64,000 bases of DNA from a virus. Its lineage: Duplodnaviria; Heunggongvirae; Uroviricota; Caudoviricetes. The notes under the pieces are model-generated. The model was not told the origin of the DNA. It searched no databases and saw nothing but the letters and a program-made list of their open reading frames with translations. The position numbers and the translations under genes are program-made. The DNA lies in IMG/VR virus record IMGVR_UViG_2622736468_000003; one strand, given 5' to 3'. How positions within the stretch are numbered: position 1 is the first letter of the stretch; each line of letters starts with the position of its first letter. Positions 5,901 to 30,377 of this stretch are shown piece after piece.

Positions 5901-6227
5901 ATGACTAAAAATACTCGTTTTTCCCCCGAAGTCCGTCAACGGGCAGTCCGTATGGTTCTGGAAAGTCAGAGCGAATATGACTCACAATGGGCGACAATTT
6001 GTTCCATTGCTCCAAAGATTGGCTGTACGCCGGAGACTCTGCGTGTCTGGGTTCGCCAGCATGAGCGGGATACCGGGGGCGGTGATGGAGGGCTCACCAC
6101 CGCTGAACGTCAGCGTCTGAAAGAGCTGGAGCGTGAAAATCGTGAACTGCGCCGCAGTAACGATATCCTTCGCCAGGCTTCCGCTTATTTTGCGAAGGCG
6201 GAGTTCGACCGCCTCTGGAAAAAATGA
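5901..6227 (+). CDS. IS629 transposase OrfA
   Basis: 108 aa [19 protein letters not shown]..., HTH and leucine-zipper region typical of IS3-family OrfA. Confidence 0.9.
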
Positions 6228-7114
6228 TGCCACTGCTGGATAAGCTGCGTGAGCAGTACGGGGTCGGACCGCTATGCAGCGAACTGCATATTGCCCCGTC
6301 AACGTATTACCACTGTCAGCAACAGCGACATCATCCGGATAAACGCAGTGCCCGTGCGCAGCGCGATGACTGGCTGAAGAAAGAGATACAGCGCGTATAC
6401 GATGAAAATCACAAGGTATACGGTGTGCGTAAAGTCTGGCGTCAGTTGTTACGGGAAGGTATCAGAGTGGCCAGATGCACTGTGGCACGTCTCATGGCGG
6501 TTATGGGACTTGCCGGTGTTCTCCGGGGTAAAAAGGTCCGTACGACCATCAGCCGGAAAGCCGTTGCCGCAGGCGACCGCGTAAACCGTCAGTTCGTGGC
6601 AGAACGACCTGACCAGCTGTGGGTGGCTGATTTTACTTACGTCAGCACATGGCAGGGCTTCGTCTATGTGGCGTTCATCATTGATGTGTTTGCCGGATAC
6701 ATCGTGGGGTGGCGGGTCTCATCGTCCATGGAAACGACATTCGTGCTGGATGCACTGGAGCAGGCGTTATGGGCCCGTCGACCGTCCGGCACGGTCCATC
6801 ACAGTGATAAAGGTTCTCAGTATGTATCGCTGGCCTACACACAGCGGCTTAAGGAAGCCGGATTACTGGCATCAACAGGAAGTACAGGCGACTCGTATGA
6901 CAACGCGATGGCGGAGAGCATCAATGGTCTTTACAAAGCGGAGGTAATACACCGTAAGAGCTGGAAAAACCGGACAGAAGTGGAGCTGGCCACACTCACG
7001 TGGGTGGACTGGTATAACAATCGACGATTGCTGGAAAGGCTGGGCCATACTCCTCCGGCAGAAGCAGAAAAAGCTTATTATGCTTCCATCGGAAACGATG
7101 ATCTGGCAGCCTGA
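6224..7114 (+). CDS. IS629 transposase OrfB (integrase catalytic domain)
   Basis: 296 aa; overlaps orfA as in IS3-family frameshift fusion. Confidence 0.9.
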
Positions 7115-20948: not shown

Positions 20949-21053
20949 ATGTCGGATGATATATCACTGGCAATGGAAGGTGCGCTGGCTGTTATTGCTG
21001 TTGTGGGCGTTTACTGCCTGGTTGTGTTTTTGATGGATCGACTAGGGAACTGA
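20949..21053 (+). CDS. 34-aa hydrophobic peptide (candidate)
   Basis: MSDDISLAMEGALAVIAVVGVYCLVVFLMDRLGN; AGGAGGG SD upstream. Confidence 0.3.
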   Translation: MSDDISLAMEGALAVIAVVGVYCLVVFLMDRLGN

Positions 21054-21298
21054 ATTCATTACGATATGGGAATTCCCATATCGGGTAAAAACGGTTTGCG
21101 GTAAAGCGAGAGTTAAGCAGAATTGCTGCGGGTGCTTGAGGCTGTCTGCCTCGGGCATGCCACCGTAAGGCAGACAGAGAAAAGCCCCAGTTAACATTAC
21201 GCGTCCTGCAAGACGCCTAACATTAATCTGAGGCCAATTTCATGCTAGACACATGTAGGTTAGCCTCTTACGCGCCGAAAGGCAAGGAGAAGCAGGCT

Positions 21299-21454
21299 AT
21301 GAAGCAGCAAAAGGCGATGTTAGTCGCCCTGATCGTCATCTGTATTACCGTCGTAGTGACGGCACTGGTAACGAGGAAAGACCTCTGCGAGGTACGAATC
21401 CGAACCGGTCAGACGGAGGTTGCTGTCTTCACAGCTTACAAACCTGAGGAGTAA
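21299..21454 (+). CDS. hok: Hok/Gef-family type I toxin
   Basis: MKQQKAMLVALIVICITVVVTALVTRKDLCEVRIRTGQTEVAVFTAYKPEE matches the Hok pattern; in-frame upstream leader from 21242; terminator follows. Confidence 0.7.
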   Translation: MKQQKAMLVALIVICITVVVTALVTRKDLCEVRIRTGQTEVAVFTAYKPEE

Positions 21455-21522
21455 GAGACCAGGCGAGGGAGAAATCCCTCGCCACCTCTGATGTGTCAGG
21501 CATCCTCAACGCACCCGCACTT

Positions 21523-21545
21523 AACCCGCTTCGGCGGGTTTTTTC
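21523..21545 (+). terminator. Rho-independent terminator after hok
   Basis: CCCGCTTCGGCGGG hairpin followed by a T-run. Confidence 0.5.
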
Positions 21546-21663
21546 ACGTACTGTGGTTGTGAATACGATTGGTATTAGGCTATGCTAACAACATTAGCCT
21601 GACTAATTTTGTATTGACTTGATTTTTGTTAAAGAACAGGACGGAGAAGTAAGGGTACACCCA

Positions 21664-21843
21664 ATGAGCTACGCACTAAAAAAACACCCGCGATTGACTA
21701 TTCCCCCTCGCGATAAAAGCGTTGTGGCAGCTCCGCGCCCGGCTATCGATGAAAATTGCACTCATCGTGAGCAGGTGAAAAATGCTTTCGATTTCGGTTT
21801 TTCTCGTTACGAGAAGGCAATGGAAGAACTTTCAAAAGTGTAA
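21664..21843 (+). CDS. Small protein upstream of the Doc-like gene (possible antitoxin)
   Basis: 59 aa from ATG 21664; stop 18 nt before the Doc-like start. Confidence 0.4.
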   Translation: MSYALKKHPRLTIPPRDKSVVAAPRPAIDENCTHREQVKNAFDFGFSRYEKAMEELSKV

Positions 21844-21861
21844 TGATGGGTATTGTGCTCT

Positions 21862-22347
21862 ATGGCTGAGATTGTTGAAGGAGTGCACTACCTTTCGTTT
21901 GATGATCTTACCGAAATTAATCGCCTTTTAATTGAGCTTCAAACACCAGATGAACCTGTTAGTGTGCTGAGTGTTGATAATTTAAGTTCTTCTCAGTCTC
22001 GTCCCAGCATGGTTCGATGGTATGAACAGACTAATGACATGTTTGTACTGGCATCAGTATTGATTGAAAGTCTGATTCAGAATCATCCATTTGCTAATGC
22101 AAACAAACGAACAGCTATGATGGCTGGTTATGTCTTCTTGTTGTTGAATGGCTATGAGTTAACAGCACCAGGCGATGAAATCGTGGAAATGGCAGAGGGA
22201 CTGGCCTGCAAAACCTATACTCGAGAAGATCTCGAGAACTGGTTGTGTTATTGGTCTCGTGCGTATGACAGCCGGGAATTATGTAAAACAGGCGCAACTA
22301 TTGTTTTGTATGAAACTATCAAGCTTAAAATAGAACAGCAAAACTAA
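21862..22347 (+). CDS. Fic/Doc-family protein (Doc-like toxin)
   Basis: HPFANANKRTAMMAGYVFLLLNGY matches the Doc-type HxFx(D/N)xNKR motif. Confidence 0.7.
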   Translation: MAEIVEGVHYLSFDDLTEINRLLIELQTPDEPVSVLSVDNLSSSQSRPSMVRWYEQTNDMFVLASVLIESLIQNHPFANANKRTAMMAGYVFLLLNGYELTAPGDEIVEMAEGLACKTYTREDLENWLCYWSRAYDSRELCKTGATIVLYETIKLKIEQQN

Positions 22348-22363
22348 AGGTGCTTCTAATGAA

Positions 22364-22386
22364 AATCCGCTTCGGCGGGTTTTGTT
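22364..22386. terminator. Hairpin terminator between convergent genes
   Basis: CCGCTTCGGCGG hairpin followed by GTTTTGTTG. Confidence 0.45.
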
Positions 22387-22397
22387 GTATTGGAGTA

Positions 22398-22715
22398 TCA
22401 TGATATTACTTGGATCCCGTTTTTCTCTACGACTGAAAGAAGGCGAAGAGCGGCACCTCCCGGCCGTTTTACACCACGTTCCCAGTCTGATATCAGGTTT
22501 TTACTGACGTTGAGGTATCTGGCAAAAACAGGTTGAGACAGATGCTCTCGTTCGCGCAGTGCACGGATCCTTTCCGGAGACATTACCGGCGCTGGCTGGA
22601 GACAAGTTTCATCGAATTCTCGCATAGTCTGTTTCGTTACTGCGCCGATATCATGAAGCGATTCCATCATTTCATGTACGGATGCAAGCGCATCACTGCG
22701 GTAATTTTTACTCAT
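22398..22715 (-). CDS. XRE-family HTH antitoxin (HigA-like)
   Basis: 105 aa with C-terminal HTH; encoded downstream of the toxin, as in higBA. Confidence 0.6.
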   Translation of the reverse strand: MSKNYRSDALASVHEMMESLHDIGAVTKQTMREFDETCLQPAPVMSPERIRALREREHLSQPVFARYLNVSKNLISDWERGVKRPGGAALRLLSVVEKNGIQVIS

Positions 22716-22769
22716 TGGGTACCTCCGTAAACTGACCCTGTAGAATCAGTTGTGCCAGTTGTTCATCTG

Positions 22770-23078
22770 TTAGATTGAGTACGTGAGGAGCCCCTTCCGA
22801 AATGCACTTTCCTCAGTAGCGGTTATATTTTCACGTTCATTTTTTGCGTATGCATATACGAAAAAGGCCCTTGTGCCGACGCGATAGAAAATGATTGTGC
22901 GATAACCGCCAGATTTGCCGCCACCGACTCGTGGCAGACGTTGCTTGATAACGCCGTTACCCAGGTTTGCTGAGATAAGCCCGTTATCAGCCTGTTTAAC
23001 AATTTCGCGCAGTGACTGGTCGGATATTTTGTTTTTGTGTGCAAATCGCTCAAACCAGGCGTTTTTAAAAATGCGCAT
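22770..23078 (-). CDS. RelE/ParE-superfamily toxin (HigB-like)
   Basis: 102 aa; GGGKSGGYRTIIFYR...FFVYAYAKNE resembles RelE-like killer proteins. Confidence 0.55.
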   Translation of the reverse strand: MRIFKNAWFERFAHKNKISDQSLREIVKQADNGLISANLGNGVIKQRLPRVGGGKSGGYRTIIFYRVGTRAFFVYAYAKNERENITATEESAFRKGLLTYSI

Positions 23079-23203
23079 TTTTTTGTTCCGTTATTAATGT
23101 ATAACACATAGTATTACATTGCGTAGGGATCTGCAATGCCATCAGTTTGACAACGTCGCGTATCCGGGATTATATTCATCGCACGCCAGCAAAATCTGGC
23201 GTC

Positions 23204-23382
23204 GGGATTAGGAACCCCGGATAGAAACCGCGACAGAGACACGCCGCGAGCGTGTTTTTTATTGTCGTATGCACACGCACATCTGAATTATGGTGGGGCG
23301 TATAGGGGAGCTGAAAAGCTCGCCGGTTGGTTTCCCGGTAGTTCCTAACCCTGTACGTCTCGCCACCCGATGATTAGGAACC
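23204..23382. promoter_or_regulatory. Three copies of a GGATTAGGAACC-like motif upstream of the ORF6N gene
   Basis: Direct copies at 23204-23218 and 23372-23382, inverted copy at 23341-23350; hairpin plus T-run at 23238-23262. Confidence 0.3.
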
Positions 23383-23423
23383 TGACGGTGGTGATAGTTT
23401 AGAAACCACTCGAGGGCGTCATT

Positions 23424-24095
23424 ATGACAACTCAAGTTTCTGTTGAAACACTCTCCACGATTACTTACAAGCAGATCCCCGTTATCACTACCGAACTTTT
23501 GGCGCACCTTTACGGCACAGAAGCTATTCGTATTCGCCAGAATCACCACGAAAACAAAGGTCGTTTCATTGAGGAAAAACACTTCTTCAAACTTGAAGGT
23601 GAAACTTTACGTGAGTTCAAGCACAGAGTAGCTTTTAACTACTCTGTGAAAATTGCCCGTAACGTTCGCTCCCTCATCCTATGGACAGAACGCGGCGCAG
23701 CCCGTCACGCAAAAATGCTCGAAACTGATCAGGCGTGGGAGGTATTCGAAAAACTGGAAGACTGCTATTTCAGCCAGGGAAAAACAGCACCAACCGAACA
23801 GCAGCCGCAGATTCAGCCACAATTCACAGCCGAAGAAATCATCCTCCTTTGCTACATGCAGCTCTGGATGGAAAAAGCCCAGGACCTCAGCAAACACCTG
23901 TATCCCATTATGAAAGAGCTGAACTCCTCATACACGAACAAGCTGTATGACATTGCGTTTGAGACCATCTACATGGTGACGAAGAACAGAGACGCGCTAC
24001 TAAGGGAGGTAACACGTCTCGACATGTCAAGTTCCATTATCCAGCGGGCCATGCCAATGCTGAAAAGCCTGCGGGCAAGACAATTTGAATTCTGA
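23424..24095 (+). CDS. ORF6N/KilA-N-like domain protein
   Basis: N-terminal ELLAHLYGTEAIRIRQNHHENKGRFIEEKHFFKLEGE...LILWTERGAARHAK. Confidence 0.55.
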   Translation: MTTQVSVETLSTITYKQIPVITTELLAHLYGTEAIRIRQNHHENKGRFIEEKHFFKLEGETLREFKHRVAFNYSVKIARNVRSLILWTERGAARHAKMLETDQAWEVFEKLEDCYFSQGKTAPTEQQPQIQPQFTAEEIILLCYMQLWMEKAQDLSKHLYPIMKELNSSYTNKLYDIAFETIYMVTKNRDALLREVTRLDMSSSIIQRAMPMLKSLRARQFEF

Positions 24096-24149: not shown

Positions 24150-24560
24150 ATGAACCAGACTATCTTCCTCCGAAGTAAGCAGCAGCAACAATTTGCCATT
24201 AACGCCATCCTTGCAACAACTCTCGATAAAGACAAACCCGTTACGATCCGCATCACCGATTACAAGCGGAATCTCGATCAAAATGCCAAATTTCACGCGA
24301 TGGTCGCTGATATCTCCCGACAGGTTCAGTGGTGCGGCAGATGGCTAAAACCAGAACAGTGGAAAGTTTGGTTAATCAGCGGTCATGCCGTGGCTACAAA
24401 ACAGGAAGCTGATGTTTTGCCAGGTCTTGAAGGTGAATACGTCAATATCCGCGAAAGCAGTGCGCAGATGAGCGTGAAGCGTATGGCAAGCCTGATTGAG
24501 TACACAACTTCCTGGGCTGTGGAGCAGGGTGTCAGATTTACCGACAGGAGGTATGAATGA
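24150..24560 (+). CDS. ninB: NinB recombination protein
   Basis: 136 aa resembling recalled lambda NinB (RSLDQN...SRQVEWHGRWL). Confidence 0.8.
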
Positions 24561-27061: not shown

Positions 27062-27545
27062 TATCCGTTCAACGGGAATGTTACATACCTCACAATTAAG
27101 TCAGTTGAATGTTGTCTGCCCGGATGAGAATTTGTTAGAAAAAACTGCATGGTGAATCCCCCTGAGCGGAGGGGCGACTGGTGACGGTATAATCTCTGAT
27201 TATCAAAACGAGAATGACGCGGGTTTAGTGGCACCGGGCTGAACTCACCGGGAGGCACCCGGCACCATGCAATGGCACATAGCGCCACTCTCCAGCCCCT
27301 CTCCGGAGGGGCTTTCTTATGGACAAAAAAGCCCGCGCTGGGAGACGCGGGCGGCAAGGAATAAACAATGAAACGTGAAGTAATATTTCAGCTGGCGAAT
27401 AATACCCCATAGTAATCACTCTGCGCAACTGCGCGACCTTTTTCGAATTGCGGGCTGTAGTCTCCCTTCTGCCATTGTCCTGTAACTTCCGGACTTCAGC
27501 CCGCTCCTTATTTTACTCACAATATTATCCCGGCCGGGAGGATTC

Positions 27546-29163: not shown

Positions 29164-29490
29164 ATGACTAAAAATACTCGTTTTTCCCCCGAAGTCCGTC
29201 AACGGGCAGTCCGTATGGTTCTGGAAAGTCAGAGCGAATATGACTCACAATGGGCGACAATTTGTTCCATTGCTCCAAAGATTGGCTGTACGCCGGAGAC
29301 TCTGCGTGTCTGGGTTCGCCAGCATGAGCGGGATACCGGGGGCGGTGATGGAGGGCTCACCACCGCTGAACGTCAGCGTCTGAAAGAGCTGGAGCGTGAA
29401 AATCGTGAACTGCGCCGCAGTAACGATATCCTTCGCCAGGCTTCCGCTTATTTTGCGAAGGCGGAGTTCGACCGCCTCTGGAAAAAATGA
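29164..29490 (+). CDS. IS629 transposase OrfA
   Basis: Identical to the copy-1 OrfA. Confidence 0.9.
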
Positions 29491-30377
29491 TGCCACTGCT
29501 GGATAAGCTGCGTGAGCAGTACGGGGTCGGACCGCTATGCAGCGAACTGCATATTGCCCCGTCAACGTATTACCACTGTCAGCAACAGCGACATCATCCG
29601 GATAAACGCAGTGCCCGTGCGCAGCGCGATGACTGGCTGAAGAAAGAGATACAGCGCGTATACGATGAAAATCACAAGGTATACGGTGTGCGTAAAGTCT
29701 GGCGTCAGTTGTTACGGGAAGGTATCAGAGTGGCCAGATGCACTGTGGCACGTCTCATGGCGGTTATGGGACTTGCCGGTGTTCTCCGGGGTAAAAAGGT
29801 CCGTACGACCATCAGCCGGAAAGCCGTTGCCGCAGGCGACCGCGTAAACCGTCAGTTCGTGGCAGAACGACCTGACCAGCTGTGGGTGGCTGATTTTACT
29901 TACGTCAGCACATGGCAGGGCTTCGTCTATGTGGCGTTCATCATTGATGTGTTTGCCGGATACATCGTGGGGTGGCGGGTCTCATCGTCCATGGAAACGA
30001 CATTCGTGCTGGATGCACTGGAGCAGGCGTTATGGGCCCGTCGACCGTCCGGCACGGTCCATCACAGTGATAAAGGTTCTCAGTATGTATCGCTGGCCTA
30101 CACACAGCGGCTTAAGGAAGCCGGATTACTGGCATCAACAGGAAGTACAGGCGACTCGTATGACAACGCGATGGCGGAGAGCATCAATGGTCTTTACAAA
30201 GCGGAGGTAATACACCGTAAGAGCTGGAAAAACCGGACAGAAGTGGAGCTGGCCACACTCACGTGGGTGGACTGGTATAACAATCGACGATTGCTGGAAA
30301 GGCTGGGCCATACTCCTCCGGCAGAAGCAGAAAAAGCTTATTATGCTTCCATCGGAAACGATGATCTGGCAGCCTGA
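29487..30377 (+). CDS. IS629 transposase OrfB
   Basis: Identical to the copy-1 OrfB. Confidence 0.9.

Follow-up and report, generated by a model that had tools for sequence, protein, structure and literature searches.

Three adjacent toxin–antitoxin cassettes occupy positions 21130–23146 of the window—the whole 64,000-nucleotide stretch of viral DNA analyzed here—and are flanked by prophage replication genes and ninB: a hok/sok locus, a Doc toxin gene together with an unnamed partner of 59 residues, and a HigBA2-type pair with a frameshifted toxin. The element that hosts them is a lambdoid E. coli prophage. We consider it likely that these are independent cassettes, stacked as accessory cargo in the variable slot that separates the replication genes from ninB—namely a type I hok/mok/sok system, a type II pair of Doc and the 59-residue protein, and a HigB2/HigA2-type pair whose toxin is probably weakened or inactive. 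All three belong to known families and are ordinary prophage cargo, except for the uncharacterized Doc partner, and all three toxins already carry labels in RefSeq.

Layout and carriage of the cassettes

An earlier note on this DNA, made from the sequence alone, had described three toxin-type modules in the nin region, starting at 21242. Every element that it named was found at or near the place given, with strong family scores, and its family assignments and gene orders are borne out by the family profile scores and the order of the ORFs. The borders are to be corrected in two respects: the hok locus really begins at about 21130, and the cluster does lie near the nin genes, but just upstream of ninB (24150–24560), past the DUF1627, DUF977, and DUF551 genes, rather than within the nin genes themselves. 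What was observed directly comprises family membership, gene order, catalytic motifs, the frameshift, the linkage of the 59-aa gene to doc, and purifying selection on the 59-aa gene.

Some part of the region—chiefly the hok module—is matched in 4720 of 5426 genomes. The Doc pair is found in 125 of the 5426, the HigBA2-like pair in 217, and all three cassettes together in 34; hence, the three modules assort independently among these genomes.

The hok/mok/sok locus

The first cassette comprises the following features:

21130–21545, plus strand: hok mRNA unit (Rfam RF01794; 92% DNA identity to the hokW locus of 933W)
21179–21250, minus strand: sok-like antisense RNA (position transferred from the annotated sokW of 933W)
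21242–21454, plus strand: mok leader frame, 70 aa, in frame with and overlapping hok; corresponds to the annotated mokW of 933W
21299–21454, plus strand: hok toxin gene, 51 aa (PF01848 Hok/Gef, E 1.4e-23)

Judged by its sequence, the locus is complete. The sok/hok-leader model RF01794 matches 21130–21304 with 116.9 bits (gathering score 59), and the 5' element GGGTGCTTGAGG (21130–21141) reads as complementary to the 3' fold-back element CCTCAACGCACCC (21504–21516). An inverted-repeat search places the terminator, a hairpin AACCCGC/GCGGGTT followed by a T-run, at 21523–21545, so that the Hok/Gef toxin, leader frame, and terminator described earlier are all present. The hok product matches phrog_251, labeled ‘MokW-like host killing’ (E 3e-32), and its RefSeq name is HokD/Hok family.

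Homology to the annotated sokW speaks for an antisense RNA, and so does the predicted fold (−31.7 kcal/mol, z −5.6), in which an unpaired 5' tail opposite the mok start precedes a long hairpin and a U-rich end. The antisense promoter that the earlier note proposed to look for is less clear. By eye, a candidate can be placed on the minus strand with −35 TTGCCT (21285–21280), −10 TAACCT (21262–21257), and a spacer of 17, both hexamers being weak against the consensus; they escaped the sigma-70 scan, which gave no promoter for sok.

In such a type I system, pairing between the 5' and 3' ends would hold the stable hok mRNA closed. Translation of hok would depend on mok, whose start is blocked by the unstable antisense Sok RNA; upon decay of Sok, the 51-aa Hok peptide would be made and damage the inner membrane.

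The nearest comparison is hokW-sokW of the Stx2 phages 933W and Sakai Sp5. Both loci share the layout of mok, hok, and antisense sok, both reside in lambdoid prophages, and 43 of 51 residues, as counted by hand, are identical between HokW and the window Hok. The window protein differs from HokW in its last seven residues, and the 3' terminator differs as well. The genomic positions are also distinct: 933W hokW sits among late-region/accessory genes near L0136–L0141, whereas the window hok lies between the replication genes and ninB.

Doc and its 59-residue partner

The second cassette and the border to the third consist of:

21664–21843, plus strand: 59-aa gene, candidate Doc antitoxin (phrog_2208, a function-unknown family; always beside a Doc gene)
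21862–22347, plus strand: doc toxin gene, 161 aa, Fic/Doc family (TIGR01550, PF02661)
22362–22383, no strand assigned: bidirectional terminator hairpin between the convergent doc and higA2-like genes (terminator scan)

On sequence evidence, Doc is a kinase-type toxin of the Fic/Doc family. It reaches 122.2 bits against TIGR01550 DOC_P1 (cut-off 38.65) and 44.5 against PF02661 (cut-off 24; E 2.9e-11), and it matches the Doc chains 9vzc (E 1e-12) and 3k33 (E 1e-4) in the PDB. The catalytic motif of Doc-type proteins is HXFX(D/N)(A/G)NKR (PMC13034048), which the window sequence HPFANANKRT at residues 75–84 fits; H75, F77, N79, N81, K82, R83, and T84 are invariant among 27 relatives in the subfamily alignment. 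The earlier note had named a lack of catalytic residues as the finding that would speak against a Doc-type protein, and their presence and invariance favor its reading. Such a Doc would phosphorylate EF-Tu and, as a result, bring translation to a stop. The conserved core extends to about residue 141, and the tail beyond it (about 20 aa) is variable. An AF2 model built from the 27-sequence alignment had a mean pLDDT of 46.9, too poor for a fold search. Downstream, the hairpin at 22362–22383 has T-runs beyond it on both strands, that of the minus strand being read from the sequence.

The 59-aa gene ends 18 nt before the doc start codon, and the gap amounts to 6–17 nt in other called loci. In each of the 17 loci examined, a Doc gene follows it immediately in the same orientation; the loci are spread over at least four genomic contexts and several genera. 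They are the window, six others of E. coli, three found with the small protein as query, and seven of seven found with Doc as query; the contexts include lambdoid early regions, a tail/baseplate cluster, and a site beside DinI/UmuDC. The gene is under purifying selection, with a median dN/dS of 0.14 overall and 0.05 over codons 34–59, and its variable sites are distributed 27/16/53 over the three codon positions. The same C-terminal stretch stands out in the AF2 model of the protein (mean pLDDT 76.7): a single helix at residues 34–57, QVKNAFDFGFSRYEKAMEELSKV, with block-mean pLDDT of 82–93, and an upstream part without structure. The N-terminus, disordered in the model, carries a conserved RLxIPxRDK motif.

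The earlier note had called Doc and its small upstream partner the least characterized pair of the three, and this holds, the partner being without database relatives. The 59-aa protein has no relative in Pfam, NCBIfam, or the PDB; none of 37 family members matches Pfam; and profile searches with the family against Pfam and the PDB gave chance-level matches only, with no antitoxin family among them. Clustered at 50% identity, family phrog_2208 has about 39 representatives among 1.84 billion proteins. Among deposited phage genomes, the Doc pair was found only once, in Salmonella phage SW-37 at ~71% identity, and a literature search by RefSeq accession and topic found no study of the window's pair. 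No consensus promoter for the doc operon came out of the sigma-70 scan, and the 170 nt upstream of the pair, aligned across 11 loci, revealed no promoter or operator conserved across genera.

Most likely, the 59-aa protein is a minimal Doc antitoxin without a DNA-binding domain, a role suggested by its position, linkage, and shape. Together with Doc, it would form a type II pair in which a small protein without a DNA-binding fold neutralizes the toxin through its conserved C-terminal amphipathic helix, in the manner of the C-terminal segment of Phd. Its lack of homology to Phd or any known antitoxin, and of a DNA-binding fold in the model, could also be read differently: the protein might be a regulator, a chaperone/adaptor, or an activator of Doc, or this Doc subfamily—whose extra conserved region to residue 141 and variable tail fall outside the alignments to solved Doc chains—might be nontoxic to the host. 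We regard this as improbable, given the strict upstream adjacency in all 17 loci, the short gaps to doc, and a constraint that is strongest on the single terminal helix; moreover, the intact catalytic motif of Doc implies a need for neutralization.

P1 Phd-Doc is a type II system whose Doc is an EF-Tu kinase. It resembles the window pair in its antitoxin-first order, in being prophage-borne, and in the type of catalytic motif (HIFNDANKRT in P1 and HPFANANKRT in the window), and Phd, like the window partner, ends in a conserved helix. The Doc proteins differ in length (161 aa in the window vs 126 aa for the P1 chain) and align over residues 53–115 only (E 1e-4). The 59-aa protein was tried as a Phd/YefM antitoxin and rejected: it has neither a Pfam nor a PDB match, hhalign against P1 Phd gives a probability of 1.4%, and the model contains no globular N-terminal DNA-binding domain. 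Short, largely disordered antitoxins do exist elsewhere, an example being PaaA2 of paaR2-paaA2-parE2.

For Phd, the hot spots F56, F60, H63, L67, and L70 have been described (PMC9207808). By eye, F42, F46, Y49, M53, and L56 of the window partner come to lie in register with them, both series ending three residues from the end of the protein. We put this match forward as a hypothesis from the sequences; hhalign against P1 Phd aligned a different segment. Stand-alone neutralizing elements are documented, as is a transferable ‘Phd-C’ element, which occurs fused to Panacea (PMC10440598). As modeled, the 59-aa protein would resemble Phd-C and PaaA2 in being short and largely disordered, in carrying its activity in one or two helices, and in lacking a DNA-binding domain of its own. 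Unlike those systems, the window pair travels without an accompanying regulator gene, and the comparison with Phd found no homology to Phd-C.

On this evidence, we lean toward the view that the 59-aa proteins make up a hitherto undescribed family of minimal antitoxins of Doc, each a peptide that is disordered apart from one terminal helix and has no DNA-binding domain. With a ‘long’ Doc subfamily, the family would travel as a two-gene cassette among Enterobacterales prophages, and it may have arisen by convergence on the C-terminal neutralizing segment of Phd or by descent from it.

The HigB2/HigA2-type pair

The third cassette is encoded on the opposite strand:

22398–22715, minus strand: HigA2-like antitoxin gene, 105 aa (HTH_3, E 1e-7; HigA-2 chains)
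22708–22791, minus strand: out-of-frame toxin C-terminus remnant (APHVLNLTDEQLAQLILQGQFTEVPNE, followed by the stop codon; by translation identical to the C-terminus of the intact toxin P0056)
22770–23078, minus strand: HigB2/PF06296 RelE-type toxin gene, frameshifted allele, 102 aa (PF06296, E 7e-38)

The HTH gene follows the toxin gene on the minus strand, which makes the order toxin-first, as is typical of PF06296 (PMC11980606). The cassette would be a pair of the HigB2/HigA2 type, made of a ribosome-dependent mRNase and an HTH antitoxin/repressor. The antitoxin matches the V. cholerae HigA-2 chains 5jaa/5j9i (E 8e-8); its HTH domain spans residues 45–99, and the 44 residues ahead of it presumably bind the toxin. 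An identical protein is encoded on at least 1000 contigs. For the pair, the sigma-70 scan found no promoter, and the inverted-repeat search returned hok 3' hairpins only and none upstream of higBA.

The earlier note had recognized a convergent RelE/HigB-like toxin followed by an XRE-HTH gene in higBA order; identity and layout stand, but the frameshift was missed and the toxin is truncated at its C-terminus. The PF06296 match covers only model positions 1–95 of 120. One C is missing in GGAAGG[C]GGC, which leaves a toxin of 102 aa instead of the 123 aa of the intact form; this single-base deletion puts the last 27 conserved residues and the stop codon into another frame at 22708–22791, where they are still readable. 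In the intact allele, the toxin stop codon overlaps the antitoxin start. Truncated toxin alleles are common in E. coli: the intact P0056 is found on 654 contigs and the exact 102-aa allele on 85, and many truncated alleles of 68–112 aa fall into the same 90% cluster.

The deletion has removed the C-terminal helix region of the toxin while leaving the antitoxin intact, and the truncated protein is probably weakened or inactive. It could still be active, as R47, R60, Y77, and K79, which align with the HigB2 active site, precede the frameshift and are retained. One might go further and take all three modules to be live, with the C-terminal helix being dispensable or the frame being restored in expression; the HigB2 report (PMC5416850), as we read it, places no catalytic residue in that helix, the out-of-frame coding sequence is perfectly intact, and the 85 contigs with the very same allele would fit as well. 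We nevertheless consider a functional allele rather unlikely, since the last 28 residues of the toxin are conserved in the family and the indels of other alleles differ and fall elsewhere, a pattern that suggests repeated decay and not a programmed event. Programmed frameshifting was itself rejected, since the shift site GGAAGGGGC contains no canonical slippery heptamer and other alleles are broken elsewhere. With its toxin frameshifted and truncated, the third module may hence consist of an antitoxin and a crippled toxin.

Vibrio cholerae HigB2-HigA2 (PMC5416850) likewise has its toxin gene first, and in HigA2 as in the window antitoxin the HTH is C-terminal, with an N-terminal segment that presumably binds the toxin. 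The window toxin matches HigB-2 in the PDB over the catalytic β-sheet region (E 3e-3), a weak similarity. Unlike HigB2, it is broken off at residue 95 through the frameshift, and toxins of the window type, when intact, are longer (123–124 aa vs 110 aa).

Prophage biology or phage defense

Toxicity, neutralization, and the EF-Tu target, as well as any role of the cassettes in prophage biology, we infer. The earlier note had suggested that such modules can stabilize the prophage or trigger abortive infection. Among close relatives of these cassettes, hokW-sokW is the only one with experimental data. It is a tested type I toxin–antitoxin system, and the experiments suggest that it assists lysis and the release of phage once the prophage is induced, rather than stabilizing the prophage (PMC8621323).

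Toxin–antitoxin modules are known in phage defense, and plasmid hok/sok is reported to inhibit phage (PMC8621323). The three cassettes might accordingly be imagined as a joint defense island of the prophage, in which toxin release upon infection by another phage aborts that infection; a Salmonella locus that carries hok, the Doc pair, ParDE, and VapBC in a row in the same prophage slot looks like an accumulation hotspot. We doubt this strongly. The modules assort independently among genomes, one toxin is frameshifted, and hokW-sokW, the closest tested relative, helps to release its own phage instead of blocking other phages (PMC8621323). Nor does any PADLOC defense model match one of the five proteins at a meaningful score: there are weak generic matches only (Doc at E 0.002 or worse) and HTH models for the antitoxin. 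Independently stacked cargo is the reading that we prefer.

Conclusion and outlook

The region illustrates cleanly how toxin–antitoxin cassettes gather in one prophage slot, with one toxin decaying and its antitoxin persisting. It adds little to general knowledge and offers one useful lead, the small partner of Doc. If the 59-aa protein is confirmed as an antitoxin, it would define a family that has so far gone unannotated although thousands of E. coli contigs carry it, the O104:H4 outbreak lineage among them—and would provide a very small natural peptide inhibitor of a Doc kinase.

Setting of the cluster in the prophage

The window is an Escherichia coli lambdoid prophage, which over 21000–23420 shares 99.8% identity with strain 23CRST047 and 99.4% with the O104:H4 outbreak lineage. 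DUF1627, DUF977, and DUF551 genes, themselves positioned after replication genes, lie 5′ of the toxin–antitoxin cluster, and an antirepressor gene followed by ninB, ninE, rusA, ninH, and Q lies 3′ of it. This gene order places the cluster in a variable slot immediately before the nin genes. The three toxin-type modules claimed in the earlier note are all borne out, and their assignment to families holds. As prophage cargo, the cluster is nothing unusual and already carries family labels in RefSeq. Two points are new beyond the first reading: a frameshift, read from the nucleotide sequence, in the HigB2-like toxin, and the partner of Doc, which is probably a minimal antitoxin and a member of a small, unannotated, strictly Doc-linked family.

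Doc and its 59-aa partner

The Doc-type protein and the small ORF said to precede it were both found:

21664–21843, 59-aa gene; stop 18 nt before the doc start; hypothetical in RefSeq
21862–22347, doc, 161 aa; TIGR01550, 122 bits (cut-off 38.65)

Doc is similar to solved chains from Enterococcus faecalis (9vzc, E 1e-12) and P1 (3k33, E 1e-4). A lack of Fic/Doc catalytic residues had been raised as a check; the residues are present, as HPFANANKRT conforms to the Doc motif HXFX(D/N)(A/G)NKR (PMC13034048) and is invariant across 27 relatives drawn from many Enterobacterales. The subfamily is longer than P1 Doc and is conserved up to about residue 141, followed by a variable tail.

The 59-aa protein has no match in Pfam or NCBIfam and is assigned to phrog_2208, function unknown. 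Its family is small: at 90% identity it forms 17 clusters, and 1.84 billion proteins include 39 representatives at the 50% level. Members measure 38–95 aa once two long repetitive chance matches are set aside. Conservation is seen in the N-terminal part as the motif RLxIPxRDK and in the C-terminal part as QVKNAFDFGFSRYEKAMEELSKV, which hardly varies. Judged by its substitution pattern, the ORF is a real gene, because variable sites in ten orthologues distribute 27/16/53 over the codon positions and the median dN/dS is low (0.14, and 0.05 over codons 34–59). In the AF2 model, residues 1–33 lack secondary structure and residues 34–57 form a single helix (block-mean pLDDT 82–93).

With the small protein as query, three loci were retrieved, each with a Fic/Doc gene 6–17 nt downstream:

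Ewingella: pair within tail/baseplate genes
Salmonella: pair flanked by hok and ParDE/VapBC
third locus: pair adjoining a tail-fibre-like gene, DinI, and UmuDC

With Doc as query, the small gene is immediately upstream in all seven loci (Serratia, four Providencia, Morganella, and Kluyvera), and the pair recurs in 6/6 other E. coli loci inspected, each time after hok and on several different lambdoid backbones. This linkage looks like that of a two-gene toxin–antitoxin cassette. In the Ewingella prophage locus (L004, 4001–4670), which is myovirus-like, the pair is inserted between the genes for tail and baseplate, a long way from any early region, and is therefore mobile as an autonomous two-gene unit.

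That the partner is a Phd protein was ruled out (hhalign against P1 Phd, probability 1.4%), and profile searches with the 59-aa family found nothing in Pfam and PDB. By eye, partner residues F42, F46, Y49, M53, and L56 fall in register with the Phd hot spots F56, F60, H63, L67, and L70 (PMC9207808), a likeness that includes the chain end three residues past L56; that this register is shared is put forward as a hypothesis only. The concept of a minimal neutralising antitoxin is not new, since the literature already has neutralising elements that stand on their own as well as a transferable Phd-C element (PMC10440598).

A frameshifted HigB2-like toxin

The proposed RelE/HigB-like toxin followed by an HTH antitoxin in higBA order is indeed encoded toxin-first:

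22770–23078, minus strand, PF06296 toxin gene (first in order)
22398–22715, minus strand, HTH antitoxin gene, 105 aa

PF06296 toxins are ribosome-dependent mRNases with toxin-first gene order (PMC11980606). The antitoxin matches Vibrio cholerae HigA-2 (E 8e-8), and an intact relative of the toxin matches HigB-2 (E 3e-3). The window toxin covers only positions 1–95 of the 120 in the PF06296 model, and close relatives are 123 aa long. Compared with the ML35 allele, one C is missing from GGAAGG[C]GGC; the shifted frame still encodes APHVLNLTDEQLAQLILQGQFTEVPNE and a stop within the antitoxin start region, as in intact proteins. With the base restored, the toxin is 98% identical to the intact relative P0056, found on 654 contigs. 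In other alleles, different sites are disrupted: an A-run close to the 5′ end is one A short in O104:H4 and ML35, and 23CRST047 has lost a further A. In the 90% cluster, the 15 members listed comprise 123-aa forms on about 900 contigs and shortened forms of 68–112 aa on roughly 670, the latter including the exact window allele (85 contigs). The antitoxin stays at 105 aa and is found on at least 1000 contigs. The frameshifted toxin may retain residual activity, because R47, R60, Y77, and K79, which align with the HigB2 active site (R51, R64, Y82, and K84), all precede the frameshift.

The hok/sok module

The Hok/Gef-type toxin is present with the leader frame and terminator ascribed to it:

21242–21454, mok frame, 70 aa, containing the hok frame
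21299–21454, hok frame, 51 aa (PF01848, E 1.4e-23)
about 21179–21250, minus strand, sok-like antisense RNA, position transferred from 933W sokW
21523–21545, terminator hairpin, 3′ of element CCTCAACGCACCC

RF01794 matches at 21130–21304 (116.9 bits; gathering score 59). The DNA is 92% identical to hokW/sokW of phage 933W, whose record annotates a 71-nt antisense sokW. In its predicted fold, the putative sok RNA has a free 5′ tail facing the mok start and a long hairpin (−31.7 kcal/mol, z −5.6); candidate promoter hexamers for it are weak and were not picked up by the promoter scan. The 5′ end of the hok mRNA, GGGTGCTTGAGG (21130–21141), is complementary to the 3′ element CCTCAACGCACCC (21504–21516). 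After mitomycin C induction, hokW–sokW promotes lysis and raises Sp5 phage release twofold (PMC8621323).

Sub-threshold isrK/rsmX-like Rfam matches at 21463–21544 and 22296–22385 coincide with two terminators sharing the stem CCGC-TTCG-GCGG, and are probably mere terminator hairpins. Just 5′ of hok, within 20830–21053, lie two tiny hydrophobic ORFs of 27 aa (MIWPEAFAITGVAIAIDFLVYVICRWG) and 34 aa (MSDDISLAMEGALAVIAVVGVYCLVVFLMDRLGN; annotated as hypothetical, WP_001278450.1), which look like single-pass membrane peptides.

Neighboring elements

An antirepressor control cassette (23147–24095), with a layout like the c4/ant immunity region of P1/P7, directly follows the cluster:

23147–23176, near-consensus promoter TTGACA-18-TATATT
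23170–23223, c4 a1b1 target element (44 bits, slightly below threshold)
23183–23260, isrK (RF01394, 69 bits)
23286–23370, C4 antisense RNA (RF01695, 66 bits)
23424–24095, ORF6N/P22AR_C antirepressor gene

Elsewhere, the sRNA family STnc100 matches strongly (RF02076, 165 bits) at 27119–27324, downstream of the nin/Q region. ALIL pseudoknots match at 6182–6298 and 29445–29561, both on the plus strand. The two score identically (120.2 bits each), and because this pseudoknot is the frameshift element of the IS3 family, one and the same insertion sequence is probably present twice in the window.

Distribution and biological role

In 4720 of 5426 complete E. coli genomes there is a match to at least one stretch of the region, in most cases to the hok module; the Doc pair occurs in 125, the HigBA2-like pair in 217, and the whole arrangement in only 34. 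The three modules are distributed independently of one another among genomes, and all Doc-pair and HigBA2-like copies in these genomes are chromosomal. PADLOC defence models gave no convincing match to the cluster proteins. The functions of all three modules are inferred. The equivalent slot of a Salmonella enterica prophage (L006, 3496–6009) carries four toxin–antitoxin modules one after another in 2.5 kb, namely hok (on the opposite strand), the 59-aa/Doc pair, ParD/ParE, and VapB/VapC, which suggests that this prophage slot is a general accumulation hotspot.
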